Shown here: piece after piece, positions 513-61,169 of the stretch
Position numbering within the stretch: position 1 is the first letter of the stretch
Layout: each line of letters opens with the position of its first letter
IMG/VR virus record: IMGVR_UViG_3300045988_140747
Strand: one strand, 5' to 3'
DNA: 64,000 nt
From: a virus
Made by a program: the position numbers and the translations under genes
Notes under the pieces: model-generated
The model's database searches: none
Seen by the model: only the letters and a program-made list of their open reading frames with translations
What the model was told of the DNA's origin: nothing

Positions 513-1424
513 ATGGCAAACAATGCACTGAGCAAGGCCGAAAGCAACGCTCTGAGCGTCAGTTATGACGTTATGGGCACGAGAGTTGATCTGGATCTGA
601 ACTTCGTTAAGCGCTACCTTGTCAGAGGACAGGCCGATCGAGTGACTGATCAGGAGCTGGTGTTCTTTATGAATACCTGCAAGATGCAGAAGCTGAACCC
701 GTTGGCCTCCGGCGAAGTGTACTGCATCAAGTTTGGCAGTGATCCTGCGCAGATGGTTATCGGTAAGGATGCTTATCTGCGCCGGGCATTCAGCAATCCC
801 GACTACCTTTATAAGGAAGACGGCATCACCGTTCTGCGCGGAGAGCAGATCGTGCAGAAAGAAGGCTGCTGCCTTTACCCGGGAGAGAAGCTTATCGGCG
901 GATGGTGTAAGGTCTATTTCATGCGGAACGGCAAGGAACGTACCGCATACAAGGAGGTTTCCCTTGAGGAGTACAACAAGGGCCAGGCGAACTGGAAGAC
1001 AAAGCCGGCGACCATGATCGACAAGGTAGCCGTCTCTCAGTGCGTCCGCGATGCGTTCCCGAAAGACTACGAGGGCCTGTACAGCGAGGATGAAATGGTC
1101 GCTTCTGGAGCGATTCCCGTAAATTTCCGCGAGGTGAAGAACACGGAAAGCTCAAATGCACCGGCGACCGAGGTTGTCGATGCTGATCCCGTCATCTCTC
1201 AGGAACAGCGACAGGCTCTTTTCAAAGCCGCCCAAAAACAGTTCGGCAAGGAAGAAGGCAATGCGGTTGTCAAGAAAATCATCGAGAGTATGGGACTTGA
1301 ATCGACAACGGGAATGACTGAAAGCCAGTATGTCGAAGCTACCGAAAGGCTCATGAAGATGGTTGATGACAGAAAAGCTGCTGTCGCCAGTGAGGAGACT
1401 GCCGCCGATGAAGCCAGCGAATGA
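513..1424 (+). CDS. single-strand annealing recombinase, RecT/Bet-like
   Basis: RBS AAAGGAGG 497-504, then ATG 513. Motifs GKDAYLRRA and KPATMIDKVAVSQCVRDAFP are typical of phage RecT/Bet annealases. Acidic C-tail. Confidence 0.85.
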   Translation: MANNALSKAESNALSVSYDVMGTRVDLDLNFVKRYLVRGQADRVTDQELVFFMNTCKMQKLNPLASGEVYCIKFGSDPAQMVIGKDAYLRRAFSNPDYLYKEDGITVLRGEQIVQKEGCCLYPGEKLIGGWCKVYFMRNGKERTAYKEVSLEEYNKGQANWKTKPATMIDKVAVSQCVRDAFPKDYEGLYSEDEMVASGAIPVNFREVKNTESSNAPATEVVDADPVISQEQRQALFKAAQKQFGKEEGNAVVKKIIESMGLESTTGMTESQYVEATERLMKMVDDRKAAVASEETAADEASE

Positions 1425-1459
1425 TCGCTATTATCAAAAGGAGAGGCGGGTGATGCTCA

Positions 1460-2257
1460 ATGGCATGGGTCAGTGTGCATGATACGGTTGACGGGAGGAA
1501 GCTGCGAGAGCTTGCTAAGTCAATCGGATGCACCAAGGAAGAGGCCCTTGGAACATTGGTGTCCCTCTGGATGTGGGGACTCAAGAACGCCGACAAGTTT
1601 GGCAGAATCATAAGCGCGGACAAAACGGATATCCTTGACGCGTTCAGCATGAAGTTGGTTGCAAAAATCCCGAATGTCGTTGATTTGCTCATAGAAAACG
1701 GGTGGATTGACGTTGAAAACGAGAAAGACCTCGTCATCCACGACTGGGATCAATGGCAGGCGTTGTGGTACAAGGCAAACGAGCGGAGAGAGAGCGATGC
1801 AAGGAGAAAGAAGAAGGAACGGCTTAAAAAGCGTGGAACCGCAGATGAACCGGAGCAAACACGCGAAACTGCCGATTATCAAACGACAGAAGCCACCGAA
1901 GAGGCCGAGAACATGAGTTTCCTTCCGAAGGATGAAAAGCCGGTATCCAAGTATTCTGAAGGCTTTGAATCTTTCTGGAAGGCGTACCCAAGAAAAATCG
2001 ACAAGGGGAATGCCTACAAAAAGTATTCCGCTCGAAGAAAAGATGGATTTTCGGACGAGGAACTTATCGAAGCCGCTACTGCTTATGCCGGGGAGTGCAA
2101 TAGGCTTCACACTGAGCAGAACTACATCAAACATCCGAAGACATTCCTGAGCGATAGCTTGCCGTTCACGGACTACATCAAGAAGAAACCCACTTCACCG
2201 GCAGAATGCCAAGAACCGAATACTGCAGATCCGTTTGCGGAATGGGGTGAGCCGTAA
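1460..2257 (+). CDS. phage replisome organizer / DnaD-like replication protein
   Basis: N-terminal organizer-like region (LVSLWMWGLKNAD, DWDQWQ), basic KKKERLKKR linker, C-terminal FESFWKAYPRK...IKHPKTFL conserved phage C-terminus motif. Directly precedes the helicase-loader gene. Confidence 0.7.
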   Translation: MAWVSVHDTVDGRKLRELAKSIGCTKEEALGTLVSLWMWGLKNADKFGRIISADKTDILDAFSMKLVAKIPNVVDLLIENGWIDVENEKDLVIHDWDQWQALWYKANERRESDARRKKKERLKKRGTADEPEQTRETADYQTTEATEEAENMSFLPKDEKPVSKYSEGFESFWKAYPRKIDKGNAYKKYSARRKDGFSDEELIEAATAYAGECNRLHTEQNYIKHPKTFLSDSLPFTDYIKKKPTSPAECQEPNTADPFAEWGEP

Positions 2258-3135
2258 TGTACGAAACAAGCTATCAGATGATGAAAGCAGCGGCTGAAAG
2301 ATGCATGAAAATGCAGAAGGAGAGGCCGGGAGACTATAGGAATAGTCAGGGGCTTCTTGTATGTGGCCGCTGTAAGAGTCTACGACAGAAGATTATGATG
2401 ATTTCCAATCCGACTCCTGAAGACAAGGATCATAAAAGCCAGCTGATTGTTCCGATTCAGTGCAGATGCGATATCTCTGATCGCGAAAAAGGCTTGAAAG
2501 ATAGGGCCGATGCGCAAAATGCCGAAAGGCTTAAAAGGTTGAAAGCGGCCAGTCTGATGGATGAAAAGCTTGCAAATGCATCCTTTGACGGATTTCGGAG
2601 CAATCCATATAATGAGCGAAATCGAAAACTGTGCATCAGCTACGCCGATCGGTTTCAGAAAATGGTTGATAACAATCAAGGACTGCTTTTTTGGGGTGGA
2701 GTTGGAACAGGAAAGAGCTATGCTGCAGCCTGTATAGCCAACAGTCTTATGGGAAAAGGCGTTCCTGTTGTCATGACATCTTTTGTCAAGCTATTGGAGA
2801 TCATTCAATCCACCGGTCAGGAGTCCACAATATTATCAAACCTCAATTCTGCACAACTTGTTATTTTCGATGACCTTGGAGCTGAGCGTGGAACTGATTA
2901 CACGTTAGAAAAGGTTTACAACATTGTGGATAGCCGATATCGGAAAAGACTTCCGATGATTCTGACTACGAATCTTACTATCGAGCAGATGAAGGACGAG
3001 CAAGATATCCGCTACAGCCGAATTTATGATCGAATCTTCGAGTCCTGCTATCCGATGCAGTTCACAGGACCGAGCTGGAGAAAAAAAGAAGCATCCAGAC
3101 GTTTCAAGGAGATTGAAGATCTGCTTGGCAAGTAA
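2257..3135 (+). CDS. DnaC/IstB-like AAA+ helicase loader
   Basis: Walker A GGVGTGKSY, Walker B LVIFDDLGAE, then MILTTNL. The ATG overlaps the upstream stop (TAATG). Confidence 0.85.
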   Translation: MYETSYQMMKAAAERCMKMQKERPGDYRNSQGLLVCGRCKSLRQKIMMISNPTPEDKDHKSQLIVPIQCRCDISDREKGLKDRADAQNAERLKRLKAASLMDEKLANASFDGFRSNPYNERNRKLCISYADRFQKMVDNNQGLLFWGGVGTGKSYAAACIANSLMGKGVPVVMTSFVKLLEIIQSTGQESTILSNLNSAQLVIFDDLGAERGTDYTLEKVYNIVDSRYRKRLPMILTTNLTIEQMKDEQDIRYSRIYDRIFESCYPMQFTGPSWRKKEASRRFKEIEDLLGK

Positions 3136-12755: not shown

Positions 12756-12953
12756 ATGAAAAAGTTCGTTGTTCTTTTTGAAGGTTGGAATGATAAGCAC
12801 GACCGTGAATGTATGCGCTATGTTGTTGATGCAGATGATGGCTTTGAAAGTATTTTGAGTGTTGAAGAACGGGCGGAAAAGATGGCTCGAAGCAAACATC
12901 CTAATCTGAAAAATTTTAAGACGCTTTACATCAAAGAACTGCTTAACAGATAA
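12756..12953 (+). CDS. hypothetical protein
   Basis: 65 aa, RBS AAGGGAG upstream. Confidence 0.5.
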   Translation: MKKFVVLFEGWNDKHDRECMRYVVDADDGFESILSVEERAEKMARSKHPNLKNFKTLYIKELLNR

Positions 12954-47718: not shown

Positions 47719-48099
47719 ATGGCATTGAAAGATCTTGCCCTCAACTCGCAAGGAGATTTGTTCATCAATGAAAAAGGTGACTTTGAAATCATTGACTCAG
47801 TTCGCCAAGCTGTATCCATAAAGCTGAGATGGATAAAAGGCGAATGGATCTTCAACAAAGCGCTCGGAACCCCGTACTTTGAATCCATCCTCATAAAAAA
47901 TCCAAGTGAGCATTTGATTGAGAAGCTCATCAAAGATCAAATCTTGAGCGTTGATGGGATTATCGGCGTTAGCTATATCAACTTGGTCAATGATCGCTCG
48001 AAGCGAACACTGACAGTCAAATTTGCGGCGAAAACTTCTGAAGAAGAAATAGAGAGCGAGGTGGAATTGTCTCATGCCGGATCTTGGAATAACACCTAA
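47719..48099 (+). CDS. baseplate wedge protein (gp25/W-like, DUF2634-like)
   Basis: ATG 47719, 9 nt after GGAG. GDFEIIDSVRQAVSIKLRWIKGEWIFNKALGTPYF pattern. Confidence 0.55.
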   Translation: MALKDLALNSQGDLFINEKGDFEIIDSVRQAVSIKLRWIKGEWIFNKALGTPYFESILIKNPSEHLIEKLIKDQILSVDGIIGVSYINLVNDRSKRTLTVKFAAKTSEEEIESEVELSHAGSWNNT

Positions 48100-49591
48100 A
48101 GGCTTTGTCATGCGCCGTTTGGACGAAATCTATGATACTGCCTGCAAAAGGTTCAAAACAGAAGTTGGAATAGACCCGTCCGAGAATCCTCAGAGCTTTA
48201 TGAATGTGCTCTTCACCATCTTTTCTGATGAGCCTTCAATGCTTTGGGAGATATTCGCAGCCGGATATCAAAACCTTTTTCCTAATACTGCCGAAGGGAT
48301 TGCGCTTGACAACTGTATGCAGCTTGGCGGAGTCAGCCGTATTGGACAGTCAAAAACAAAATACACTCTTGCCTGCACAGGGCGAGAAGGAACCACTATT
48401 CCCGTTGGCGCTATCGTTCAGACAAGCTCTTTTCCTCAAAGGCAGTTCCAAGCATCAGAAGTCTCTCAGATTTCAAGTGTAAATTGGAATGTCCTTGATA
48501 TCGCTCCAATTGAGAGCATTTCTGGAGACATTACTTTCACATTTGGCGTTGTGCGAAGCTCAACATCTGGCGAGGTTGGAGCCTACGACGAGTCAATATC
48601 TGTTACTAAAGATCTTTCGGTGTCCTCTTATGACGATGCCTTCAGTCAGATTTTTAGTGTGCTCCAAAATTTTAGCGATCTGAAAAAATACGGAATCTCC
48701 GTTTCAAAGATCGCTGATGATAGTGGAGGATCCGTTATCCGGTTCAAGTCCTCTGGTTCTTCTGATAGCTTTTCCGCCACGCTCTGCCGCTACATAACGG
48801 TGGTCTCGGTCACAAGCAATATTGCCTTTGAGAGCGTCGATTATGGAAGCGTCGTTTTGGCAAACGGAACCATAACAGATATCGTTACTACAGTAGATGG
48901 ATGGAGCTCTTGCACCAATTGCATCGCTCCGATAAAGGGAAGACTTGTTCAGACTGATGCTGAAGCAAGATCCAGCTACACAAATCGAGTTGCCATGCGC
49001 GGAACCGGAACGGTTCTTAGCATCGCTTCTCTGCTGTACAACGATGTTGATGGGGTCACATTTTCCACTGGATACCAAAACGATGGTGATGAACCCGATT
49101 CTGCCGGAAGACCGCCTCATAGCATTGAAATGATCGTTCAGGGCGGAAGCGACGATGACGTTGCAAAAGTAATCTGGGAAAACAAGTCTGCTGGTATTCG
49201 GGCGTATGGATCTCATTATGCCTACGCTGTTGATTCCAACGGCCAAAAACAGTATGTGGAATTTACTCGCGTTCTGGATGTCTACTTGCTTGTGTCTGTT
49301 AAGATCACAAGTTCTGATGGACTGGATGATGATTATGTCTCCAGAATTCAGACCCTTCTCCTTGATGAGCAGCTTCATACGGGTCAGGTGATCCGACTGC
49401 AAAAATTCATCAGGCCAATTCTCGAATCTGTTTCTGGAGTTGATTTTGTCGAAATCAGAGGGATGCTCAGTAGAACCCCTGACATTTCTGATGTGTCTGA
49501 TGATGAGCTGTTGAACGGAGTTGTTCCCGTCAAAATCAATCAGCAACCGATTCTGACTCCCAAATGCATTAGGGTGGTGAAGACAACTTGA
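48074..49591 (+). CDS. baseplate J-like protein
   Basis: 505 aa. N-terminal PKGFVMRRLDEIYD...NLFPNTAEGIALDNCMQLGGVSR is typical of Baseplate_J. Confidence 0.75.
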   Translation: MPDLGITPKGFVMRRLDEIYDTACKRFKTEVGIDPSENPQSFMNVLFTIFSDEPSMLWEIFAAGYQNLFPNTAEGIALDNCMQLGGVSRIGQSKTKYTLACTGREGTTIPVGAIVQTSSFPQRQFQASEVSQISSVNWNVLDIAPIESISGDITFTFGVVRSSTSGEVGAYDESISVTKDLSVSSYDDAFSQIFSVLQNFSDLKKYGISVSKIADDSGGSVIRFKSSGSSDSFSATLCRYITVVSVTSNIAFESVDYGSVVLANGTITDIVTTVDGWSSCTNCIAPIKGRLVQTDAEARSSYTNRVAMRGTGTVLSIASLLYNDVDGVTFSTGYQNDGDEPDSAGRPPHSIEMIVQGGSDDDVAKVIWENKSAGIRAYGSHYAYAVDSNGQKQYVEFTRVLDVYLLVSVKITSSDGLDDDYVSRIQTLLLDEQLHTGQVIRLQKFIRPILESVSGVDFVEIRGMLSRTPDISDVSDDELLNGVVPVKINQQPILTPKCIRVVKTT

Positions 49592-49827
49592 TATCTGCTT
49601 ACAACAATATGGTTGAAAAGCTCCCACTGCAATTTCGTCTGGAAGCTTGTGACGAATCTTATTTCGGAGACTTTATTTGTGATACGAAAGACGATCTTAA
49701 AAGCTTGCCAACCGATTGTGCAATGGGAAGCATCGCCAGAGTTATCGAGCCGCCATCTATTTATAGAAAAAGTGCATCTGGCACTTGGGTTCTGCAAAAA
49801 AGCGTCGGGGAGGATGAAGAAATTTGA
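49588..49827 (+). CDS. hypothetical tail protein
   Basis: 79 aa. TTG start overlapping the upstream stop. Alternative ATG 49609. Confidence 0.4.
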   Translation: MISAYNNMVEKLPLQFRLEACDESYFGDFICDTKDDLKSLPTDCAMGSIARVIEPPSIYRKSASGTWVLQKSVGEDEEI

Positions 49828-50405
49828 GCTACGAAATCATCGAAACCACCCCCATACGGATAGAAAAAATGTCCGTCATAGATGGTATCCCCTGGGCATT
49901 TTCTCCGGCATATGAAGAATTGGAGCTTGCACTCGGTCAGATTGAAAGTCTGAATGATATTGATTCGTGTTCTGGCGTTCTACTTGATCGCATAGGGCAA
50001 ATTGTTTGCTTGTCCAGACAGGAAGCGGGCATCATGATCGGAAGCCGTGAGCTTGCTGACGACGACAGCATCTATAGGGTATGCCTTAAATATAAGGCTT
50101 ATGTCAACAGCTGTCGCTGTACCCCGGATGAAATCATTGAAGCGACAAAAATTATTTTTGGGGCTTCACAGGTTTTGTACAGCGAGCAGCGAGACACACC
50201 AGCCACATTTCATCTGTCAATATCTGCGCCTTTTTCCGATCTAGTTCTTTCGATTCTTGGATCTCACGATCTTATCGTTCATCCTGCCGGCGTAAAGGTC
50301 AAAGCGGATTGTTCTACAGTAGATACAGATACATTCGGATTTGTTGACATAAATCCAAATGTTGCGGGGTTCGGAAACGGAAAATTCGCGCAATCGATTA
50401 ACTAA
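49824..50405 (+). CDS. tail-fibre-proximal baseplate protein (DUF2612/XkdU-like)
   Basis: VLLDRIGQIV...DDDSIYRVCLKYKAYVNSCRCTPDEII pattern. Confidence 0.45.
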   Translation: MSYEIIETTPIRIEKMSVIDGIPWAFSPAYEELELALGQIESLNDIDSCSGVLLDRIGQIVCLSRQEAGIMIGSRELADDDSIYRVCLKYKAYVNSCRCTPDEIIEATKIIFGASQVLYSEQRDTPATFHLSISAPFSDLVLSILGSHDLIVHPAGVKVKADCSTVDTDTFGFVDINPNVAGFGNGKFAQSIN

Positions 50406-50423
50406 AGGAAAGGAGGATTTTTT

Positions 50424-51458
50424 GTGGCCGAAACACGATCCGGATTAGTTGTGGATGACTATTCAAAAGTTGCCTTTTCTGTAGATGGCACCAAACAGGA
50501 GCTATCTATTGACGAATGGAAGGCCGGCTGGGCTACCATTGTTGGCGGCATTAACGGAAAGCCGACAAGCCAGCAGTTCAACATGGTTACATACATTCTG
50601 TCAAGCTTGCTGAATCAAGCCATTTCAGATCTTTCAACTGTTAAAAGCACCGCCAATGACGCACTGCCAAAGACCGAATTCACAGCGGATCAAATTGCAA
50701 AGATGCTTGCAGAACTGGATCTGATGAATGGATGCAACGCCGATAAGCTTGACGGAAAACATGGCGATGAATATGCGTCTGCAGACCATAAGCATTCTGC
50801 AGACGACATTGAAGTCGGAACATTGCCCATCGAACGAGGTGGAACATATGCCACTACCGCTCCTGAGGCGTGTGCAAATCTTGGCGCAATGCAGACAGCC
50901 GGCGGTACGTTCATTGGTGATGTTTACTTTGCAAACGGAACTGCGCATTATGTTTTGTCAACAGGCGACGCGCATCTTAAATCTTTGACGGTATCTGGTG
51001 ATATCAATGCAAAGCGAGTCTACGATGCAGTTTATAACGACTATGCTGAGTTGATGCCGCGTGGCGAACAAACAGAACCGGGCGACATCGTTGCTCTCGA
51101 TACCAGCAGTCAGACGGAACGATACATCAAGGCAACGAATTTGTCTGACCGTATCGCTGGAGTCCACACTGATGAGTTTGCAATGCTTATCGGCGGCAAT
51201 AAAGTTAGAGAAGGGCAGGATTTCCTTGCGGAAAACCTGCCCTCTTTTATTCCTGTTTCTCTTGCTGGCCGTGTGCATACCAAAGTGATCGGGCCTGTTC
51301 ATACGGGTGACTACATTGTTTTGTCTGAAACGCCAGGAATCGGACGTGCCGTTGGTTCGTGTGAATCCTGCCCGACCGATAAAATTGTTGGCTACGCTTG
51401 TGAAGGCGATGACCGAACAGATCTTAGACTGGTAAAAGTCAGAGTAGGGGGCAAGTGA
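50424..51458 (+). CDS. tail fibre protein 1
   Basis: GTG after AAAGGAGG. W..GW..IVGGINGKPTSQQFN, DKLDGKHGDEYA..HKHSADDIEVGTLPIERGG: classic fibre motifs. Confidence 0.7.
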   Translation: MAETRSGLVVDDYSKVAFSVDGTKQELSIDEWKAGWATIVGGINGKPTSQQFNMVTYILSSLLNQAISDLSTVKSTANDALPKTEFTADQIAKMLAELDLMNGCNADKLDGKHGDEYASADHKHSADDIEVGTLPIERGGTYATTAPEACANLGAMQTAGGTFIGDVYFANGTAHYVLSTGDAHLKSLTVSGDINAKRVYDAVYNDYAELMPRGEQTEPGDIVALDTSSQTERYIKATNLSDRIAGVHTDEFAMLIGGNKVREGQDFLAENLPSFIPVSLAGRVHTKVIGPVHTGDYIVLSETPGIGRAVGSCESCPTDKIVGYACEGDDRTDLRLVKVRVGGK

Positions 51459-52444
51459 TGATAAAAAAGGATTCACGGTGCTATGCTTCTGACTTTTCTG
51501 AAATAAAGAAAGCACTTGATGCTGAGCTTGGCCGTCGCGGAAAAGCTGAGGGAACAGCGCGTGGGCAGAGCGTTGGCAGCATGGCTTCATACAAACAAGA
51601 GTTCTCAAATGCTATTGCAGTAGGAGAAACTATCAGAAATGAACACATTCAGAAGCTCACTCAGCCTTTGAGCGCCATTACGGGTTCATCCATTGCACCT
51701 GAAAATGGAAACAAGGTTACTGCCGATGTACTGGCTCAAGCTGCATCGATGCTCAGTGAACTCAGTTCGGTCGAGGAGACATCCTCATCAAGCGGATGCG
51801 CAGGAGCGTGCTCCGGCCTTTGCGCAACTGGTTGCTATTCCTCGTGTTCTGGATGTACCGGTAGCTGCACGGGTGGTTGTTTAGACTCTTGCGTTGCGAC
51901 TTGCGCAGATGATTGCGTTGGTGGCTGCAAGACAACATGCTCTGGATTGTGCACCGGGACATGCACTGGAACGTGCACGCAAGCATGTGCAAATACTTGC
52001 GGAGGAACATGTACCGGCACTTGCATGGGCACCTGCGTAAATTCCTGCACTGGCAACTGCGTTGGAAAATGTACAGGTACATGCACAGCAGCCTGTGCCG
52101 ATAGCTGCACAAGGAACTGTAAGACAACCTGTAGTGGCGGATGCTCCGGTTCATGTGATGGTTGTTCAAGTTCCTGCGAGGGAAGCTGCAGCACCAATTG
52201 TGCTGATAGCTGCGATAACAATTGCACGACTGGGTGCAAATCTTATTGTGCAAATAGCTGTCAGGATAGTTGCGCTGGAACGGGTTGCCTTGCTAACTGC
52301 GAAAGCGGCTGCTCGAACTCTTGCAGAGGCGACTGTAATTCGCACTGCGGTTCACAGTGCACTAGCGGTTGCGATTCAAGCTGCGATGGATGTTCTGGAT
52401 CGTGTTCCGGTGGCTGCACAAGCTGCTCTGGATTCTTATTTTAA
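51455..52444 (+). CDS. CXXX-repeat (54-Cys ladder) protein, candidate radical-SAM substrate
   Basis: GTG/ATG 51455/51458 overlaps the fibre gene stop. 114-aa non-repetitive N-domain, then about 215 aa with Cys at nearly every 4th residue (CTGTCTGTCTQACANTC...). Confidence 0.8.
   Translation: MMIKKDSRCYASDFSEIKKALDAELGRRGKAEGTARGQSVGSMASYKQEFSNAIAVGETIRNEHIQKLTQPLSAITGSSIAPENGNKVTADVLAQAASMLSELSSVEETSSSSGCAGACSGLCATGCYSSCSGCTGSCTGGCLDSCVATCADDCVGGCKTTCSGLCTGTCTGTCTQACANTCGGTCTGTCMGTCVNSCTGNCVGKCTGTCTAACADSCTRNCKTTCSGGCSGSCDGCSSSCEGSCSTNCADSCDNNCTTGCKSYCANSCQDSCAGTGCLANCESGCSNSCRGDCNSHCGSQCTSGCDSSCDGCSGSCSGGCTSCSGFLF
51797..52441 (+). repeat. 12-nt periodic Cys-codon array (54 TGC/TGT codons)
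   Basis: Units counted by hand: 49 CXXX, 4 CXX, 1 CXXXX. Spacer residues are almost only G/S/T/A/D/N. Confidence 0.9.
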
Positions 52445-52462
52445 AAAATACAGGAGGAAAAG

Positions 52463-53047
52463 ATGGACGCTACTATTCATTATGCAAGTAACGGCGACTC
52501 AGATGCAGATGCATCGTATCTCAGAAATCTGCCGATCATTAAGCTCCTTCAAAAGGCCACCATCGATGTCGATGACTGGAGTGTGCTCTTGTCTGCCGCT
52601 CCTAACGGCGAAGATAAGCTTTTCTGGTGTCTTGGATATGCTGGCGCTCTTTGTGCTATCGACGCAACAGACTTTGATGACTGGTTTATCTACTGCCTTA
52701 CAGTCGTGGACTCCGCTTTGCAAGCCTGCAAAATCGAGAGTGCTTCTGATGAGCGCCGAAACCTGCTTGCTCTTGGGCTTGCATCGAGAACTTTTAATTT
52801 TGCAGCAAATCCTGTCACCAAAGATCTGAAATGTAAGGACGCATTACTCGGCGCTGGCGATTACCGTTGTTCTGAAGATGCTGATATCTTTGCCATGTGG
52901 TTTGCTCTTCGCATCTTGACTGAATATCTGAGGCTTGACTTCAACAGCAATCTGCGGGCTTTGACAAATGCCATGGTGTCCATGAACAAAATTCGGGAAC
53001 GGTACAGCCAGATTGCAGACAGGCTTCCGAAAATGGATGCCTGCTGA
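52463..53047 (+). CDS. hypothetical protein of the CXXX/rSAM cluster
   Basis: 194 aa, RBS CAGGAGGAAAAG. Seven Cys. No family recognised. Confidence 0.6.
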   Translation: MDATIHYASNGDSDADASYLRNLPIIKLLQKATIDVDDWSVLLSAAPNGEDKLFWCLGYAGALCAIDATDFDDWFIYCLTVVDSALQACKIESASDERRNLLALGLASRTFNFAANPVTKDLKCKDALLGAGDYRCSEDADIFAMWFALRILTEYLRLDFNSNLRALTNAMVSMNKIRERYSQIADRLPKMDAC

Positions 53048-53067
53048 GATCTGAAAAGGGGAAGAGT

Positions 53068-53370
53068 ATGAAAATTGTAGAGTTGACTACCATCGAGAGC
53101 GAAACTGTAGAGCGTGCTTTTTATGAGGCACAGTCGTATGAGTCGCTCATGGCGGTTCTCAGCCGACAGCTGAATGCCAATGCGAATCCTGAAACTGCCA
53201 AGATCCTTATGCATTATGCAGAGCTGTGCAGAGCTGCACAAATGAAGCTTAAAATGGCACAGGATACCGTCGTTTCGCGGTATATCGACCTGAACGATCC
53301 GCGATATGTCCGATACCAATTCGATTTCGGCAGGGAGGAGGTCCATCTCCTTGAAAAACAAGAGATTTGA
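53068..53370 (+). CDS. hypothetical small helical protein of the CXXX/rSAM cluster
   Basis: 100 aa, RBS AAAAGGGGAAG. No family recognised. Confidence 0.6.
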   Translation: MKIVELTTIESETVERAFYEAQSYESLMAVLSRQLNANANPETAKILMHYAELCRAAQMKLKMAQDTVVSRYIDLNDPRYVRYQFDFGREEVHLLEKQEI

Positions 53371-54700
53371 GGACTACGGAAATACAGTCCAAAGACTGTA
53401 CTGCCGAGACCTTCCTGAAACCAGCAGTGCATGCCGCAATATCACATTTCAGGTTACGAACGGCTGCAATCTTCGGTGTTCTTATTGCTATGAGCATCAC
53501 AAGGGATCGGAGCATATGAGCGTCGAGACCGGCAGAAAAATTGTTGATTACTTGCTTGACCAGTACGAACGCAACGATTCGGACTTCATCAACTGGAATA
53601 CACGGGCTGTCGTTCTCGACTTTATCGGCGGAGAACCGCTGCTTGAGGCCACTTTGATTGAACAGATCTGTGATTACTGGTTTTCAGAATGCTTCCGTCG
53701 CGACATTCCACTGGCTCCGTTCACAAGGATCTCTTTTGCTACGAATGGTCAACTCTGGTTTAGCTCTGAAGCGCAGCATTTGATTGAAAAGTATCACGAC
53801 CTCATGTCAATCACAGTTAGCATTGACGGTGTTCAGGATCTTCACGATATGTACCGCCTCGATGAACACGGTAACGGGAGCTTTTCAAAAGCATGGGTCG
53901 CATTTCAAGATGGAAAGCGCCGCTTTGGATGGGCCAACAGCAAAATGACTTTTGTTCCCGGGTCATTCCCGTACATTTCCGATAGTCTCAAGATGATGTT
54001 AGATGAAGGATGCTCTGATGTCGCTTGTAACTACGCATATGAACCTGTGTATACGCCTGCAGATGGACGGTCTCTGTATGAGCAGCTGAAGATTGTGTCC
54101 GACTACATTGTAGACAACAAACTGGATGTTGTTGTCACGATTCTCGATAGTCTGCTCGGCGGAAAAGCTAAAGACGACAAGAATTTCTGCGGTGGCACAG
54201 GCGCTATGTTATCGTTTGCGCCGGATGGGAGCGCCTATCCATGTATTCGATATGCTCCTATTAGCATTGGTGTGGAAAAAGCCAAGAAAGTCCGCTTTGG
54301 AAGCGTCTACGATGGACTATATGTCACTGATGAGCAAAAACGTGTAAAAGCGGATCTTGACGCAATTACTCGTACAACACAGTCTCCAAAAGAATGCTTG
54401 GAATGCCCTGTGTCTGCAGGGTGCGGCTGGTGTTCTGGCATGAATTATGAGGTGTTCGGTACAGCCAATAAGCGTACCACCTCTATTTGCTGGGCACACA
54501 AGGCCCGTGTCCTTGCAAGTGCCTATTATTACAATCACCGGTATGTTGAGATCGGCGATTGCCTGCCAATCAAGGTCGAACTGCCTGAAACCGATGCGCT
54601 GAAGATCCTCTCCAAGCAAGAGTATTCTAAGTTTCAGAACTTAGAAAAAAAGGCGCTGCTGAAATTTGCTGATGCAGCAGGAATTAGAAGAAAGGAGTGA
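53351..54700 (+). CDS. radical SAM / SPASM-domain enzyme (peptide/protein maturase-like)
   Basis: TTG 53351, 9 nt after GGAGGAGG (alt. ATG 53306). CNLRCSYC cluster, GGEPLL, ATNG. C-terminal FCGG...YPCIRY...CLECPVSAGCGWC...SICW is a SPASM-type auxiliary-cluster Cys pattern. Confidence 0.85.
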   Translation: MKNKRFEDYGNTVQRLYCRDLPETSSACRNITFQVTNGCNLRCSYCYEHHKGSEHMSVETGRKIVDYLLDQYERNDSDFINWNTRAVVLDFIGGEPLLEATLIEQICDYWFSECFRRDIPLAPFTRISFATNGQLWFSSEAQHLIEKYHDLMSITVSIDGVQDLHDMYRLDEHGNGSFSKAWVAFQDGKRRFGWANSKMTFVPGSFPYISDSLKMMLDEGCSDVACNYAYEPVYTPADGRSLYEQLKIVSDYIVDNKLDVVVTILDSLLGGKAKDDKNFCGGTGAMLSFAPDGSAYPCIRYAPISIGVEKAKKVRFGSVYDGLYVTDEQKRVKADLDAITRTTQSPKECLECPVSAGCGWCSGMNYEVFGTANKRTTSICWAHKARVLASAYYYNHRYVEIGDCLPIKVELPETDALKILSKQEYSKFQNLEKKALLKFADAAGIRRKE

Positions 54701-54704
54701 AAAA

Positions 54705-56309
54705 ATGGCTGTTTTAATTGCAGAAACCAAGCTCGAAACAATTGATACAGCATGGTACCACTTCTACATTGACAAAGTTGCCGATATAGAGTCACTTCCC
54801 ACTAGTTGTTCGATTGGCATTGCCTTTTCTGTAAAAAAATATGCTCGGCCAACCAGCGTTGCCTACTGCATAGAAGACGCGCATGTATATATGCTCGACA
54901 GCCATGACAAGTGGCGTCCCATGTACGGCTTCTCTGATGATGTTCTTGACGCCCTTGATGTCAAAACAAGTGATTTCTTCAAGATCTGCTCCGAGACAAA
55001 GAACTATAGGGATGAAGCAGTTTCAAATGCTAATTCCTCCGCTAAAAGTGCAGCTGCTGCTCTCGCAAGTCAAAATGCCGCCAAGAACAGCGAGACAAAA
55101 TCTGCTGCAAGTGAAGCCGTAGCAAAAAGAAGTGAGCAAAGTGCAGCAGCTGCAGCTGCAGCTGCAAGCAGCAGTAAAACTTCTGCCGCTGCAAGTGAGG
55201 CAACAGTCAAAGCATCTGCAACTGCTGCCGCTGAATCTCAGGCTAAAGCCGCCGAATCAGAGAAAAATGCAAAGGCTAGCGAGACTTTAGCTGGTACAAG
55301 CGCCACAAACGCATCCACGTCCGCAAAAAATGCAGCCTCTTCCGCCACTACAGCAACTGACGCCGCTACGACAGCTTCCGAAAAGGCTACTGCCGCTAGC
55401 TCTAGTGCCACCAATGCAGCTGCAAGCGCAAAAACTGCAGAAAAAAGCGAAGCAAACGCTAAAATTTATGCTGAGAAAGCTCAACTTATCGGCGACAGTT
55501 ACAAAGGCTGGTACCAAACAGAAAAAGAACTGGCCGCAGATCTGACAGAAGCAAAAAACGGTGACTGGGCGATCGTCGGCGAGTCTGACACCATGTGGGT
55601 GTGGGATGGCGACACCGGCGCGTGGGTCAATACCCGCAAAGAGGTGGACCTGTCGGACTACATGACGCAGGACCAGATCATGAAGCTGCTTGAGCAGTAC
55701 ATGCCACTTCGCCCCGCCACCGCAACCACACTGGGCGGAATTAAGGTCGGCAGTGGACTTTCTGTGACCGAAGATGGAATGCTGAGCGCCGATGCTCAGG
55801 AATACACCCTCCCCGCCGCCACCGCAACCACGCTGGGCGGTGTGAAGGTTGGCAGCGGTCTGACGGTCGATGCGGACGGAACACTTTCTGCGGACAGCGC
55901 TTTGGCTGCCTACCCCGTTGGCAGTATTTTTCAAACAGTCAGCACTACCAGTCCCGCCGAACTGTTCGGCGGTACATGGCAGGAGATTGCATTTAACCGC
56001 GTGCTGATGGGTGCTGGCACAGGCTACACAGCGGGAAGCACGGTGGAGGCCGGACTGCCGAACATCACGGGCAGCTTAATAGAAACAAACGCAGAATCCT
56101 CCCCATTCCGTGGTTCAAAAGCGTCTTTGAAATCATCGGGAGCTTTAAAATTCGTAGAAATCAATACTTCTTGGGGTGGCTACAGTGGTATGTCAGGTTC
56201 GACGTATGATGTTTACTTTGATGCTTCCCGCTCGAACTCAATCTACGGTCGCAGCTATACCGTGCAGCCCGCCGCCTACTATGTGCACATCTGGAAGCGC
56301 GTGGCATGA
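54705..56309 (+). CDS. tail fibre protein 2
   Basis: ATG 54705 after GAAAGGAG. Long Ala/Ser/Thr-rich helical repeat region, duplicated TLGG(I/V)KVGSGL motif, C-terminal YPVGSIFQT...GGTWQEI collar-like domain. Confidence 0.75.
   Translation: MAVLIAETKLETIDTAWYHFYIDKVADIESLPTSCSIGIAFSVKKYARPTSVAYCIEDAHVYMLDSHDKWRPMYGFSDDVLDALDVKTSDFFKICSETKNYRDEAVSNANSSAKSAAAALASQNAAKNSETKSAASEAVAKRSEQSAAAAAAAASSSKTSAAASEATVKASATAAAESQAKAAESEKNAKASETLAGTSATNASTSAKNAASSATTATDAATTASEKATAASSSATNAAASAKTAEKSEANAKIYAEKAQLIGDSYKGWYQTEKELAADLTEAKNGDWAIVGESDTMWVWDGDTGAWVNTRKEVDLSDYMTQDQIMKLLEQYMPLRPATATTLGGIKVGSGLSVTEDGMLSADAQEYTLPAATATTLGGVKVGSGLTVDADGTLSADSALAAYPVGSIFQTVSTTSPAELFGGTWQEIAFNRVLMGAGTGYTAGSTVEAGLPNITGSLIETNAESSPFRGSKASLKSSGALKFVEINTSWGGYSGMSGSTYDVYFDASRSNSIYGRSYTVQPAAYYVHIWKRVA
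55716..55895 (+). repeat. two 78-nt copies (period 102 nt) encoding ATATTLGG(I/V)KVGSGL(S/T)V..DG.LSAD
   Basis: Copies at 55716-55793 and 55818-55895, aligned by eye. Confidence 0.8.
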
Positions 56310-56327
56310 GAAAGGAGGTTTTGATCG

Positions 56328-56630
56328 ATGATCCCTGTGACATTTGATACTGTGGCAACATTGCAGTTTGGCAGTGAGGGTCACCCGACCAGTCTGCACT
56401 TTGCCATCCCGGAAGAGTGGAAAACCTGCAAAATCAGACTCCACCTGCGGCGCAGCGACGGTAGCTTTGTGCCCCCGATGCAGCTGGACGAAAATGGGTG
56501 CGTAAAAGTAGACCGCAGTGACTCCGGCAAGACCGGCGGACAGTGGATGCTGTCGGCTGAAAGTCCTGACGGAAAAGTATCTTACTCGCGAATCGGCAAA
56601 TATGTGACCCCCATGGAGGTGACACAATGA
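56328..56630 (+). CDS. hypothetical tail-fibre-associated protein
   Basis: 100 aa, RBS GAAAGGAGG. Confidence 0.55.
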   Translation: MIPVTFDTVATLQFGSEGHPTSLHFAIPEEWKTCKIRLHLRRSDGSFVPPMQLDENGCVKVDRSDSGKTGGQWMLSAESPDGKVSYSRIGKYVTPMEVTQ

Positions 56631-57464: not shown

Positions 57465-57887
57465 TTGAATAGATTAAAAGAGATTTTGAAGTGTCTTGTT
57501 CTATTTTTAATTGGCGGAACTCTTTACTGCTGCCTCGAAGTTCTATGGCGCGGATATACCCACTGGACGATGGCTGTTGTGGGCGGTTGCTGCTTTATTG
57601 TTATCGGTGGATTAAATAACTATATTCCTTGGGAAATGAAAATCTGGAAGCAAGGAGTTGTTGGCGCGGTATTCGTTACCGCGATGGAACTTGTTGTTGG
57701 CGTTCCTCTCAACCTGTTCATGGGCTTAAATATCTGGGATTACTCTCAGGTGCCTTTTAACTTTCTTGGACAGATTTGTTTGCCGTTTACTGTTCTTTGG
57801 TTCTTTCTGTCAATTCTGTGCATTTTTGTTGATGACTGGCTACGTCATATTTTGTTCAAAGAAGAAAAGCCTAAATATTATTGGTAA
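57465..57887 (+). CDS. small polytopic membrane protein (ABC-transporter type IV-like/DUF1113-like)
   Basis: TTG start. Four hydrophobic segments. LIGGTLYCCLEVLWRGYTHW motif. Confidence 0.5.
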   Translation: MNRLKEILKCLVLFLIGGTLYCCLEVLWRGYTHWTMAVVGGCCFIVIGGLNNYIPWEMKIWKQGVVGAVFVTAMELVVGVPLNLFMGLNIWDYSQVPFNFLGQICLPFTVLWFFLSILCIFVDDWLRHILFKEEKPKYYW

Positions 57888-58098
57888 AGGTGGTGAGAAA
57901 AATGAGTTGATATATTGAAGTTGGCTGGACGACTAGTGACAACAGTAGATTTCCCGAGGATAGCGTTCTGCTGGCGTACTTTGGCAACAGCTCCGGCGGT
58001 AACAGCAAGCGTATCGCATACAACGGCGGCAGCGCTGCAGGCCGCTCTGGCCGACGATGAAACAACTGAAACTGCATGAGCAGAAAGGAAGGAATACT

Positions 58099-58215
58099 AT
58101 GGAATTTTATAACGCCTGTAATCTCATGATCGAGCGCGGCCAGACCGCGGGCATGGCAAAGAAGCTGGACATCTTATACGCCGCCGTCAAGCTGACCGAA
58201 AAGACCAGCGCCTGA
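58099..58215 (+). CDS. 38-aa XkdX-like small protein
   Basis: ATG 58099 after AGAAAGGAAGG. MEFYNACNLMIERGQTAGMAKKLDILYAAVKLTEKTSA. Below the ORF-track cutoff. Confidence 0.4.
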   Translation: MEFYNACNLMIERGQTAGMAKKLDILYAAVKLTEKTSA

Positions 58216-58253
58216 CCGGGCCGGAAAAGGACGCACCAAGGAGGTGTTGCTTT

Positions 58254-61169
58254 ATGATCGAGTTCCCCATCACGCTGACATCCGGCGGCAGCGTATGCAT
58301 GCCCGGGTACGTATTTGCGCTGGCCCTCGGCTACACCAAGAACCTGGGCGTGTACCGCCTGCACGTCGATGCAACCGGCGAGTGGGAAGGGCTGACTATC
58401 CGCTGCTTCTGGCACGTGCCGGACGGCAAAGATCCGTCATCCTCGTTGGTGGTGGACGGCTATGTGGACGTGCCCGCCAGCGTGACCGCACAGCCCGGGA
58501 GCGGGTGCATCACCTTTGAGGGCAGCGATGACACCAAGAACATCACCAGCGCAGACCTGCACTACCGTGTAAGTGCCAACTCAGGCACAGAGGATGGCAC
58601 AGAGCCGGAACCGGGCACCCCTGCATGGCAGCAGCTGGTGGATGCCGTGCACACTGACGCCACCGCCGCAGAGCAGGCCAAGACCGATGCACAGACGGCA
58701 GCACAGCAGGCCGGGGCATCTGCCCAAAAGGCTGGGAATGCCCTTTCTGACACCATTACCGCCAAAGAGGATGCTCTGAAAGCCACCAAAGACGCACAGA
58801 CCGCTGCTAGTGAAGCCAGTGCATCAGCCGAAAATGCTGCGCTTGCACAAGTTACAGCATCTCAACTTGCAGGACAGGCAGCGGGCAGTGCGTCTGAAGC
58901 TCAAAACAGTGCCACTAAGGCTGCTGCGAGTCAACAGACCGCCGAAAGCAATGCAGCAGCTGCACAAGGGAGCGCCACAAAGGCCGAGGCATCAGCTTCT
59001 ACAGCTGTTCAGGGACAACAGCGTGCGGAGGCGGCAGCAGCCCGTGCCGAAACCGCACAGCAGCAGACTGAAAGTGCCAGCACTGACGCGCTGGATAAAA
59101 TCAGCTCTGCAAAAACTGATGCACTGAAAGCCATCGGTAACAAGCAGACTTCTGCCACCACTGCAGTAGAAAGCGCTCAGGGAAAAGCTCTTGACGCTGT
59201 GGCTGATGCCAAGAACACCGCCGTAACAGCCGTGACCGATGCTCAGACCGCCGCCACACAGGCAGTGGGCACTGTCCAAGCTAATGCCATTCAGCAGATG
59301 AAATCCACAAAAACAGACGCTCTGAAAGCCATCGGTGACAAGCAGACCGCCGCCACGCAGGCTGTGGACACGGCCCGGGACAAGGCCCTCCAGCAGGTGG
59401 GAGCCTCTACAGAAGCCGCACAGACCGCAGCCAATAAAGCCGCCACCAGTGCGGGCAATGCAGACCAGAGCGCTCAGAAGGCCGCTGGCAGTCTGCAGGA
59501 GCTCAAGAACGGCATCGCAAGCGGTGACTTCAAAGGCGAGCCCGGCAACGACGGGAAATCTCCAGTTGTAACTGTACTTGGCATCGAAAATGGCCATCGT
59601 GTTAGCATCACTGACAAAGACGGTACCAAAACAATTGATGTCTTGAATGGCAAAGACGGCAAAGATGCTCCACAAATTGATGACACCACTGTGGGGCTTG
59701 ACGCATGGAGCAGCAAGCACATCGTGGATATGCTCTGTCCGCCGCTTGAGGAGACCGGGAACCCGGTGCAGTGTTATCCTGTGGCGGAATATCCGCTGGG
59801 CTGTAAGGTGAGCTGGGAACCCGTGCAGGAAGGCAGTGGAACACCGTATCCGGCAGGTGGCGGAAAAAACCTGTTTAATCCTGCATGGATGCCAGAAAAA
59901 ACCTTGAACAATGGATTAACATGGACAACGACCTCCGATGGCACTGTAACAGCAAACGGAACGGCAAATGGGACTTCATACTACAATTCTGATTATTTTT
60001 CGCTCCCTGCGGGCACATACACGATTAGCGCAATGCCGTATTCCCGTATGTCAATTCTCAATAGGGATGTAGGCGATACTACAGTTGCTGCCCAACAGGT
60101 TGGGCAGCCGTGTACATTTACGGTAGAGACTGACATACAAAATGCCTCCTTGTTTTTTGCCACCTCTGGCATACTGGATAATGTTTCGGCAAAACCGCAG
60201 ATAGAGAAAGGCACGACTGCAACAGCCTATGCACCCTACGAAAACATTCGCTCGATTAAGGGCAAGGGCAGCGTGACGGTCGAGCGGTGCGGGGGAAATC
60301 TGCTGAATCCAAAAGAGAACGCCAATGATACATATACTCCGTATGGCCTAACGATAACTTATATTGGGGATAACAAGGTTCATTTAAGTGGAACTTACCA
60401 AGAAAACGGCGGCAGCTTTGCCATCCTTGACACTCAGCAAAAACTTCTTGCGGGAAAAGGGCTGAAAATCACCGGATTTACGGTAGCCGGAACAAAACAA
60501 AGCTACACTCTTTACGGACTACGGACAAAAAACGAAACCGTTATTGCTATGAGTGCACAGTTTGCAAAAGGCGATGTTATTGATATGACTGTCGCTGTTG
60601 TCGTGTCAGGCACCACCGCCCCTACCACTTACGCCCCTTACACCGGCCAAACCGCCACCCTCACTCTGCCCCGCACCATCTACGGCGGCACGGTGGATGC
60701 AGTGACAGGAGAGGGAAACGAAAACGCAAAGATTATCACGCTGGACGGCAACGAACTGAAATTTGTCAAAGCCAACATCTATATCAACCTCCCGAATCAT
60801 TCTGCACCGGGGATTTCAAAAGGTGGAATTGTTTGTTGTAGTCACTTTAACAAAAGGCTTTTTGCCGTGAATACGACTTACGAGTTTTGTTTTTTGTTAG
60901 AGTCTGATATGACTAGTCTTTTTGCCAGTGTTGACGACCTGAATGCCTACCTTGCTGCCCAGTACGCAGCCGGAACTCCCGTGCAAATCGCTTACAAGCT
61001 GGCAGAGCCTATGCCCTTCACTGCACCTGGTGCACAGCCCATCCCCGCTCTGAGCGGCGTGAACACAGTCCTGACCGATGCAGACAGTGCAACCGTTACC
61101 GGCAAGGCTGACCCCATCAAACGCATTACTGACCTTGAGGACGCAGTAGCGTCCATGACAACGACCTAA
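58254..61169 (+). CDS. tail fibre / receptor-binding protein 3 (971 aa)
   Basis: RBS CAAGGAGG. About 330-aa Ala/Gln/Thr-rich helical repeat region, GDFKGEPGNDGKSP collagen-like turn, beta-rich C-terminal half. Confidence 0.75.
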   Translation: MIEFPITLTSGGSVCMPGYVFALALGYTKNLGVYRLHVDATGEWEGLTIRCFWHVPDGKDPSSSLVVDGYVDVPASVTAQPGSGCITFEGSDDTKNITSADLHYRVSANSGTEDGTEPEPGTPAWQQLVDAVHTDATAAEQAKTDAQTAAQQAGASAQKAGNALSDTITAKEDALKATKDAQTAASEASASAENAALAQVTASQLAGQAAGSASEAQNSATKAAASQQTAESNAAAAQGSATKAEASASTAVQGQQRAEAAAARAETAQQQTESASTDALDKISSAKTDALKAIGNKQTSATTAVESAQGKALDAVADAKNTAVTAVTDAQTAATQAVGTVQANAIQQMKSTKTDALKAIGDKQTAATQAVDTARDKALQQVGASTEAAQTAANKAATSAGNADQSAQKAAGSLQELKNGIASGDFKGEPGNDGKSPVVTVLGIENGHRVSITDKDGTKTIDVLNGKDGKDAPQIDDTTVGLDAWSSKHIVDMLCPPLEETGNPVQCYPVAEYPLGCKVSWEPVQEGSGTPYPAGGGKNLFNPAWMPEKTLNNGLTWTTTSDGTVTANGTANGTSYYNSDYFSLPAGTYTISAMPYSRMSILNRDVGDTTVAAQQVGQPCTFTVETDIQNASLFFATSGILDNVSAKPQIEKGTTATAYAPYENIRSIKGKGSVTVERCGGNLLNPKENANDTYTPYGLTITYIGDNKVHLSGTYQENGGSFAILDTQQKLLAGKGLKITGFTVAGTKQSYTLYGLRTKNETVIAMSAQFAKGDVIDMTVAVVVSGTTAPTTYAPYTGQTATLTLPRTIYGGTVDAVTGEGNENAKIITLDGNELKFVKANIYINLPNHSAPGISKGGIVCCSHFNKRLFAVNTTYEFCFLLESDMTSLFASVDDLNAYLAAQYAAGTPVQIAYKLAEPMPFTAPGAQPIPALSGVNTVLTDADSATVTGKADPIKRITDLEDAVASMTTT
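59112..59399 (+). repeat. internal ~90-nt duplication (period ~198 nt): KTDALKAIG(N/D)KQT.AT.AV..A..KAL
   Basis: Copies about 59112-59201 and 59310-59399, aligned by eye. Coordinates approximate. Confidence 0.6.

Follow-up and report, generated by a model that had tools for sequence, protein, structure and literature searches.

The window analyzed here is a 64,000-nucleotide (nt) stretch of viral DNA, IMG/VR record IMGVR_UViG_3300045988_140747, and our subject is a cassette of genes on its plus strand (51455..54700) that ends in the gene for a radical S-adenosylmethionine (SAM) enzyme. Upstream of the enzyme are two small proteins of 100 and 194 amino acids (aa), here called orf100 and orf194, and before these comes a protein rich in regularly spaced cysteines, here called the Cxxx protein. 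A preliminary description of this DNA had dealt with the enzyme and its start; it linked the enzyme neither to the 55-cysteine repeat protein two genes upstream nor to the tail-fiber module around it, and these are the links that we develop below. The features of the cassette are as follows.

51455..51796, plus strand: N-domain of the Cxxx protein (aa 1-114), a long leader or structural anchor, conserved over 25 diverse members
51797..52444, plus strand: C-x3 repeat region of the Cxxx protein (aa 115-329), with 54 Cys, nearly all 4 residues apart; presumed core substrate, matched by TIGR04114/TIGR04117
52463..53047, plus strand: orf194, a 194-aa accessory protein of the Faecalibacterium-phage clade, predicted to be all-helical (AlphaFold2 (AF2) model, synteny)
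53068..53370, plus strand: orf100, a 100-aa accessory protein and probable remote homolog of TIGR04116, its last 20 nt overlapping the start of the enzyme gene (hhalign, synteny)
53334..53341, plus strand: predicted Shine-Dalgarno sequence GGAGGAGG, 9 nt 5' of TTG 53351 and inside orf100
53351..54700, plus strand: predicted radical SAM/SPASM maturase, phage clade of the CXXX-repeat-target family, 449 aa when counted from the TTG (NCBIfam, PDB profile and PHROG matches)
53465..53488, plus strand: CNLRCSYC, the CX3CX2C motif for the AdoMet-cleaving [4Fe-4S] cluster (C54/C58/C61), invariant in 22 sequences
54188..54490, plus strand: SPASM region with seven invariant Cys (C295, C313, C364, C367, C373, C376, C395), from the alignment and the match to CteB

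A predicted peptide-modifying radical SAM/SPASM enzyme

Residues of the enzyme are numbered from an in-frame ATG at 53306. The motifs CNLRCSYC, GGEPLL (nt 53627-53644) and ATNG and the C-terminal cysteine motifs all lie where the preliminary description had put them: FCGG holds C295 (nt 54188), YPCIRY holds C313, CLECPVSAGCGWC holds C364/C367/C373/C376, and SICW holds C395 (nt 54488-54490). The resulting pattern is C-x12-G-x4-C ... C-x2-C-x5-C-x2-C ... C, whereas the SPASM consensus, CX9-15GX4C ... CX2CX5CX3C ... C, has x3 and not x2 as the final spacing within the central run; the canonical TIGR04115 enzyme from Anaerococcus has the same x2 final spacing as the phage enzyme. Searches found 1372 homologs, and those aligned at full length are 434-460 aa long. 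In an alignment of 22 homologs (50-95% identity), all ten cysteines, three for the AdoMet cluster and seven in the SPASM region, are invariant, as is GGEPLL. In a PDB profile search the seven SPASM cysteines fall in the same columns as those of CteB (5wgg, E 3e-27), a correspondence that, judged by sequence, is far beyond chance, and the full SPASM-type auxiliary-cluster set that had been claimed for the enzyme is borne out. Pfam recognizes the radical SAM core (PF04055, 35.3 bits against a cutoff of 29.5), with Fer4_12 as the sole other Pfam match, and the Pfam SPASM model gives no match at E 0.1. Membership in the SPASM subfamily is assigned from the seven-cysteine motif, which predicts two auxiliary [4Fe-4S] clusters, and the fold is assigned from hidden Markov model (HMM) and PDB sequence matches.

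Among NCBIfam models the best match is TIGR04115 (E 2.4e-94, 316.7 bits, model positions 2-359 of 359), the family named "radical SAM peptide maturase, CXXX-repeat target family". PapB follows (134 bits), then CcpM, the SCIFF maturase and QhpD; the cyclophane-forming YhhB and XyeB, DynA and anSME match lower, at 40-65 bits. The other components that accompany TIGR04115 also appear to be present: a C-x3 target (TIGR04114/TIGR04117) is encoded nearby by the open reading frame (ORF) 51455..52444, and the TIGR04116 accessory is represented, profile to profile, by the orf100 family. PHROG places the enzyme in phrog_1802, "radical SAM domain-containing protein" (E 2e-67), and a 60%-identical homolog in a public Caudoviricetes metagenome-assembled genome record already bears the TIGR04115 name. 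These matches point to a peptide-modifying radical SAM/SPASM maturase. The preliminary description had proposed the same class; TIGR04115, PapB and SCIFF/CteB are the best families, anSME reaches only 50 bits, and no confident placement in a radical SAM family that modifies something other than peptides emerged from the comparison.

Known systems and what the phage form shares with them

The CXXX-repeat system, comprising the TIGR04115 maturase, TIGR04114/TIGR04117 targets and the TIGR04116 accessory, was defined by comparative genomics, reportedly in a 2011 paper by Haft and Basu, and we know of no biochemically characterized member of TIGR04115, TIGR04114 or TIGR04116. Common to the bacterial system and the phage form are a full-length best match to TIGR04115, the C-x2-C-x5-C-x2-C run, the lack of a RiPP recognition element (RRE) at the N-terminus (RiPPs are peptides made on the ribosome and modified after translation), an adjoining C-x3 target and an accessory of about 90-100 aa of the β-α-α-β-β type. 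The differences are several. Phage targets are 160-390 aa long, with an N-domain of about 110 aa and up to 65 Cys, whereas bacterial CXXX peptides have 55-130 aa; the accessory is very divergent and precedes the enzyme in the phage, whereas it follows the enzyme in bacteria; the Anaerococcus enzyme carries a C-terminal extension of about 360 aa that the phage enzyme lacks; and the phage form, unlike the bacterial one, has an additional 194-aa helical protein, no transporter or regulator, and a setting in a tail-fiber operon. In the canonical Anaerococcus locus (L136, 4508..12884) a 729-aa radical SAM enzyme, whose extension of about 360 aa contains Cys, is accompanied by a histidine kinase with its response regulator, by a precursor of 61 aa, by TIGR04116 and by ABC transporters, and a second radical SAM-like gene lies at 12892. 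We found no publication on a phage version of the system in the searchable literature.

Of the characterized enzymes, PapB and CteB are the nearest relatives, and both form thioethers. PapB, which acts on PapA to make freyrasin in Paenibacillus polymyxa, is a ranthipeptide maturase whose product carries six thioethers between the Cys and Asp of C-x3-D motifs. Among families it ranks second for the phage enzyme (model positions 4-328 of 330); it is likewise a radical SAM enzyme with auxiliary clusters, and has a substrate with cysteines in a four-residue register, as in the Cxxx protein. The PapB substrate, however, has Asp at i+4 and 6 repeats, whereas the phage protein has Cys at i+4 and about 54 repeats, and the score lies well below the cutoff of 340 bits for the PapB family (NF047865), in an enzyme that has no RRE. 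CteB, the SCIFF/thermocellin maturase (5wgg, 5why), is the best relative of solved structure, aligning over the core and the SPASM region; it differs in a final SPASM spacing of C-x3-C where the phage enzyme has C-x2-C, the SCIFF maturase model TIGR03974 gives 74.6 bits against a cutoff of 425, and no SCIFF peptide is present.

QhpD is a radical SAM/SPASM enzyme that installs several Cys thioethers in QhpC, the gamma subunit of quinohemoprotein amine dehydrogenase, a protein kept in a larger assembly. It is distant in sequence (TIGR03906, 72 bits) and its substrate and context, a periplasmic enzyme subunit, differ from those of the phage, but it sets a precedent for a product that is structural and not secreted. 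The anaerobic sulfatase-maturating enzyme anSME oxidizes one sulfatase Cys or Ser to formylglycine. The phage enzyme has the radical SAM core and SPASM architecture in common with it (4k36-4k39, E 3e-8 in the PDB search); the anSME model TIGR03942 scores 50.4 bits against a cutoff of 349, and there is no sulfatase among the annotated genes at 43-63 kb.

A cysteine-repeat protein as the candidate substrate

ORF 51455..52444 encodes 329 aa with 55 Cys and 48 Cys-x3-Cys steps, and it matches TIGR04114 (28.8 bits, cutoff 20), TIGR04117 (E 1e-9) and phrog_6085. In phage-type Cxxx proteins the first position after Cys is T, S or A, the second is G in 47% of cases and the third is S, T or G; successive cysteines are spaced by 4 in 3116 cases and by 3 in 321. 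The repeat DNA is not a recent tandem repeat, and the periodicity is therefore kept at the level of the protein. Phage-type Cxxx proteins are 160-390 aa long (329 to 386 aa among close relatives), with cores of up to about 270 residues and 65 Cys. These matches make the Cxxx protein the likely substrate of the enzyme.

The N-domain has its own signature, with K18, E24, R27-R28, E63-H64 and K67 invariant or nearly so in 25 diverse members. A phmmer search of 1.8 billion representative sequences gave 45 clusters and located it nowhere but at the N-terminal end of Cxxx-repeat proteins; three large repetitive matches among these clusters were dismissed as spurious on inspection. Bacterial Cxxx targets carry short leaders or, in Bacteroidales and Ignavibacteria, Tat-like RRxFFK signals. 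We observed targets of this Tat-like kind in Bacteroidales, Ignavibacteria and Acidobacteria (L117, L123, L124, L130, L134, L140, L141, L143-L145, L149 and L150), often as 2-5 tandem paralogs upstream of the radical SAM gene. Long ORFs also run across the Cys-repeat DNA of the window in other frames, at 51762..52253 and 51835..52239 on the minus strand and at 52062..52829 on the plus strand; these are most likely artifacts of biased composition and not genes.

Two small proteins between candidate substrate and enzyme

An RRE is a leader-peptide-binding winged helix-turn-helix (wHTH) built from three β-strands and as many helices. The phage enzyme has none, because its N-terminus is too short: only 28 residues precede the radical SAM core, and the CteB alignment starts at CteB residue 90, leaving the N-terminal residues 1-89 of CteB, its RRE, without a counterpart. 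The preliminary description had likewise seen no RRE- or PqqD-like region in the enzyme. In PapB the RRE occupies residues 1-86 (PMC12715619). The canonical Anaerococcus TIGR04115 enzyme also has only about 33 residues before its core and no N-terminal domain.

The same description suggested that RRE-like folds be sought in the ORFs at 52463 and 53068, and neither has one. The AF2 model of orf194 (mean predicted local distance difference test score (pLDDT) 89.2) has 8 helices and is all-α, and that of orf100 (pLDDT 89.9) has the topology E-H-H-E-E (β-α-α-β-β). Foldseek comparison of the two models with the PDB gave best E-values of 0.5 for orf100 and 0.3 for orf194, with no RRE or PqqD among the 50 hits listed for each, and none of 26 orf100-family members matched PqqD (PF05402) in Pfam. 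On predicted topology, Foldseek and the Pfam PqqD search, an RRE-like fold is ruled out for both.

What orf100 appears to be instead is a divergent member of TIGR04116, the family named "CXXX repeat peptide modification system protein", the third named component of CXXX-repeat systems. An HMM of the orf100 family finds a member directly beside the radical SAM gene in 93 loci, and weaker matches in consistent position in further distant prophage-type loci, with the match downstream of the enzyme in L107 and L111. The weakest matches, in Anaerococcus and Peptoniphilus loci, are bona fide TIGR04116 proteins (83 bits, cutoff 50), and an intermediate member (L098) matches TIGR04116 over its full length (E 0.014). 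An hhalign comparison of the orf100 family (26 sequences) with a TIGR04116 set of 14 putative members, one of them confirmed against the model, gave a probability of 94% (E 1.5e-7) over 83 of about 94 columns. We assign orf100 to this family because of the hhalign result and the bona fide TIGR04116 proteins among the weakest matches of its HMM.

In every viral locus orf100 adjoins the enzyme gene, and it does so in distant loci of prophage type as well. The stop of the one gene usually overlaps the start of the other, by 20 nt in the window and by 7-20 nt across the inspected loci, and this overlap is a conserved feature. The preliminary description had proposed that this small upstream ORF could be a partner of the enzyme. 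The conserved adjacency, the overlap and the link to TIGR04116 speak for the partnership, and the part of the proposal that pointed to an RRE fold falls away; by analogy, orf100 may serve in substrate recognition or as a chaperone.

For orf194 the comparison with BFVD returned only uncharacterized viral proteins. Almost every phage-clade locus that includes upstream sequence (L002-L085, L087) carries it after the Cxxx gene and before orf100, and it was not detected in the more distant loci. In a 248-kb viral contig (L072, 6114..7004) orf194 and orf100 form one in-frame ORF of 296 aa with a poly-A junction (…NNAKKKKV…), which hints that the two act together; it could also be an assembly error.

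A fixed place behind a tail-fiber gene

The cassette is flanked on both sides by genes for fiber proteins:

50424..51458, plus strand: tail-fiber protein of 344 aa whose stop codon overlaps the start of the Cxxx gene (weak PHROG tail-fiber match; Pfam matches of homologs)
54707..56309, plus strand: next tail-fiber-like gene, probable ATG at 54707, 6 nt past the stop codon of the radical SAM gene (Gp10_C; several PHROG tail and tail-fiber families)

Of 11 homologs of the upstream fiber protein, 4 match PF12571 (tail-collar fiber N-terminus) and 3 match PF11962 (best E 1e-5), the Peptidase_G2 intramolecular-chaperone domain, which stands C-terminal in these homologs. The fiber stop and the Cxxx start overlap by 4 nt, and the other genes of the cassette are 18-20 nt apart or overlap. 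The late region of the window runs from tape measure through baseplate hub and wedge subunits to the fiber gene at 50424, the cassette, the fiber-like genes and the endolysin.

Our synteny sample comprised 80 IMG/VR loci together with loci from Faecalibacterium genomes, about 150 loci in all. On all contigs of sufficient length the order is fiber, Cxxx, ORF of about 200 aa, ORF of about 100 aa, radical SAM. A Cxxx ORF ends about 0.9 kb before the enzyme in each of the 78 viral loci that cover this stretch (truncation affects the remaining 2 of the 80), and most genome loci have a Cxxx ORF close to the enzyme. When loci were instead retrieved by the fiber protein (L160-L238), those reaching about 3 kb or more downstream had Cxxx directly next and the radical SAM gene further on, with zero exceptions. 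Among the annotated genes at 43-63 kb we detected no protease, exporter, immunity or regulatory gene. The cassette shows no excess of promoter-like or terminator-like sequences over shuffled expectation, and its guanine-cytosine (GC) content is like that of its neighbors. We considered whether it might be a moron and rejected this, as it has no promoter or terminator signal of its own and its GC content does not deviate.

Genome matches indicate a Faecalibacterium host, and a 74%-identical prophage is present at 2.32-2.34 Mb of the F. prausnitzii chromosome NZ_CP186691, the identity being that of the radical SAM enzyme; the cassette sits in the late baseplate/tail-fiber operon of a temperate Faecalibacterium phage. 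GenBank holds no cultivated phage with a close homolog of the enzyme, the close matches there being unannotated "Bacteriophage sp." contigs from human feces. Jumbo enterobacterial phages (H7-H34, among them SPN3US, SEGD1, phiEaH2 and Asesino) encode distant radical SAM proteins with 25-27% identity over about 81-83% of the query, one of which is labeled "AlbA" in its record.

Several further observations concern the module and its surroundings. Between L004 and the window the enzyme, orf100 and orf194 are 95-99% identical, the Cxxx protein 63% and the fiber protein 76%, the pattern of a mosaic module; between L002 and the window (48074..54700) the cassette is 89-99% identical and the baseplate genes only 68-73%. 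A viral contig of about 148 kb (L062) carries at 721..2796 on the minus strand a second, divergently oriented set consisting of a fiber fragment, a Cxxx gene (1660..2349), an orf194-like and an orf100-like gene, with no second radical SAM gene in the fetched stretch and a full cassette at 5.2-8.3 kb. The listed start of the downstream fiber-like gene (TTG 54666, in 54666..56309) would overlap the enzyme gene; AAGGAG precedes 54707, and ATG 54707 is probably the real start because homologs begin with MAILIA... at the equivalent ATG. A 140-aa multi-pass membrane protein (57465..57887, phrog_20274) is encoded amid the fiber-like genes, well ahead of the endolysin (62358). GC content rises to 0.54-0.59, with stronger AT skew, at 55000..56500 and 58000..59500, against about 0.45-0.48 around them; these stretches are the Ala/Ser/Thr-rich centers of two large fiber-like proteins, and the shift suggests either a mosaic origin or a compositional bias of repeats.

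A proposed modification system acting on a virion-associated protein

Taken together, we read ORF 53351..54700, translated from the TTG, as the catalytic member of a three-component CXXX-repeat modification system, borne by a phage, whose product acts with the fiber or the virion, and we put the probability of this reading at roughly 60%. In such a system SAM would be reductively cleaved at the CX3CX2C cluster and a hydrogen abstracted from a carbon in a C-x3 repeat; that carbon would then bond to the sulfur of a Cys bound at an auxiliary cluster, in the manner of PapB and CteB, and repetition of the reaction along the C-x3 array would yield a ladder of small thioether rings. By analogy with these enzymes, multiple thioether crosslinks are the likely chemistry, and candidate acceptors within the repeats are the x positions, with their small polar residues, or else the Cys that follows. 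orf100, perhaps together with orf194, would stand in for the missing RRE in presenting the substrate, and the stop/start overlap would couple the production of orf100 to that of the enzyme. The modified Cxxx protein would stay intact and work alongside the tail fiber or virion, forming a crosslinked, redox-inert rod or tip. An intact, virion-associated product, not a secreted peptide, is most likely because no peptidase or exporter accompanies the cassette, because the protein is 160-390 aa long and because its gene is tied to a fiber gene.

Several points weigh against this reading. The enzyme does not reach the curated TIGR04115 cutoff of 350 bits, nor do eight other phage-clade enzymes (295-330 bits), and for this reason the phage enzymes are better regarded as a sister clade of TIGR04115 than as certified members. 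orf100 of the window has no direct TIGR04116 match at E 0.1 (cutoff 50 bits), its link to that family being made between profiles. The tie between the Cxxx protein and the virion is, here, one of synteny; its N-domain has no Pfam or PDB match and no structural homolog, and these 114 aa might just as well be a long leader, cut off by a protease of the host. The thioether chemistry is argued from homology to PapB (134 bits) and CteB (E 3e-27), and the place of the PapB acceptor, an Asp at the fourth residue past the Cys, is taken here by another Cys. A search of the literature returned no biochemical characterization of TIGR04115, TIGR04114 or TIGR04116.

A wider proposal, which we offer tentatively, is that temperate gut phages of about 62-260 kb, mostly of Faecalibacterium, staple a tail-fiber-associated virion protein with a RiPP-type maturase. 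A repeat of about 215 residues might in this way be converted into an unbroken ladder of dozens of thioether rings, a redox-inert substitute for disulfides in surroundings free of oxygen, with orf100 as a new stand-alone partner that presents the substrate and is not a wHTH.

Alternative readings

The cassette might instead be a bacteriocin-like RiPP cluster carried by a prophage, in which the N-domain is a leader, the core is cut by a host protease, and the product is released at lysis or by an exporter to act against competitors. Canonical TIGR04115 loci, in which a short precursor is accompanied by ABC transporters and a two-component system, do resemble bacteriocin clusters; Cxxx targets with Tat-like signals in Bacteroidales and Ignavibacteria are by that token exported; and an N-domain confined to Cxxx proteins is what one would expect of a leader. 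Against it, no gene for a protease, exporter, immunity or regulatory function was detected among those annotated at 43-63 kb of the window, promoter and terminator signals of its own are absent from the cassette, its site between fiber genes and its overlap with the fiber gene are fixed, without exception in the fiber-retrieved loci that extend about 3 kb or more downstream, and cores of up to about 270 residues with 65 Cys are far above known RiPP size. We regard this reading as unlikely.

A different question is whether the Cys repeats are modified in some way other than to thioethers, for example to formylglycine as in anSME, by C-C crosslinks, by epimerization or by desulfurization. SPASM enzymes carry out many chemistries, and those that match the phage enzyme at 40-65 bits (YhhB, XyeB, DynA and anSME) illustrate this; in addition, the C-x3-D rule for PapB acceptors is not obeyed in the repeats. 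Against this, the two best characterized relatives by a wide margin, PapB and CteB, are both thioether formers, and a Cys-dominated substrate with small polar residues in between fits a chemistry with Cys as donor. We judge it decidedly unlikely that the products are of another kind.

It could also be argued that orf100 and orf194 are ordinary chaperones of tail-fiber assembly, unrelated to the radical SAM reaction and adjacent to the enzyme only by way of the fiber operon. Both do sit in a tail-fiber module, neither has an RRE fold, and the role of TIGR04116 as a modification component is itself putative. Yet orf100-like ORFs stay by the enzyme in minimal loci that consist of Cxxx, orf100 and radical SAM genes (for example L090 and L100), lie on its downstream side in other distant loci (L107 and L111), and orf100 is homologous, by the profile comparison above, to TIGR04116 proteins of non-phage RiPP clusters without any fiber gene; this makes the chaperone reading highly unlikely.

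The start of the enzyme

Two in-frame starts are available to the enzyme, ATG 53306 (464 aa) and TTG 53351 (449 aa). GGGAGGAGG at 53333-53341, within ORF 53068..53370, stands at a 9-nt spacing from the TTG. Many lineages without an upstream ATG have a TTG 38-39 codons before CX3CX2C, preceded at a 9-nt spacing by a perfect AGGAGG; in lineages further removed, the equivalent site, 36-42 codons before the motif, is an ATG with a good Shine-Dalgarno sequence. The 15-residue N-terminal extension that the ATG would add occurs in none of 21 aligned homologs, and the stretch 5' of the TTG is conserved in the other frame, as the C-terminus of orf100. The TTG is accordingly the predicted start of the enzyme, because TTG and AGGAGG are conserved, no homolog has the extension and the ATG lacks a Shine-Dalgarno sequence; the comparative data agree here with the preliminary description, which had favored a start inside the preceding ORF, 9 nt after a ribosome-binding sequence. 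Translation from ATG 53306 to a 464-aa enzyme, which has in its favor that this is the sole upstream ATG and gives the longest ORF, is very improbable indeed, since its Shine-Dalgarno region has 3 of 6 matches, it is gone in most relatives while TTG and AGGAGG are kept, the sequence before the TTG is preserved as orf100 in a different frame, and full-length aligned homologs of 434-460 aa do not extend to it.

Implications

The radical SAM enzyme taken alone is ordinary, the system is widespread in gut phages, and it already has named, curated models in NCBIfam/TIGRFAMs. New here is a phage-specific form, with a large substrate that bears an N-domain, an accessory that lies upstream of the enzyme gene and overlaps it, a helical protein, no export machinery and a fixed place behind a fiber gene. 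orf100 stands out as a small conserved partner with a confidently predicted fold that has no PDB match, and an isolate with a related prophage exists in F. prausnitzii (NZ_CP186691). Should the product be secreted instead, no known RiPP-like product would come near it in the extent of its crosslinking. If the Cxxx protein is indeed a thioether-laddered component of the virion, RiPP-type maturation would extend to the structural proteins of phages, and this could explain how fibers are stabilized without disulfides in the anaerobic gut.

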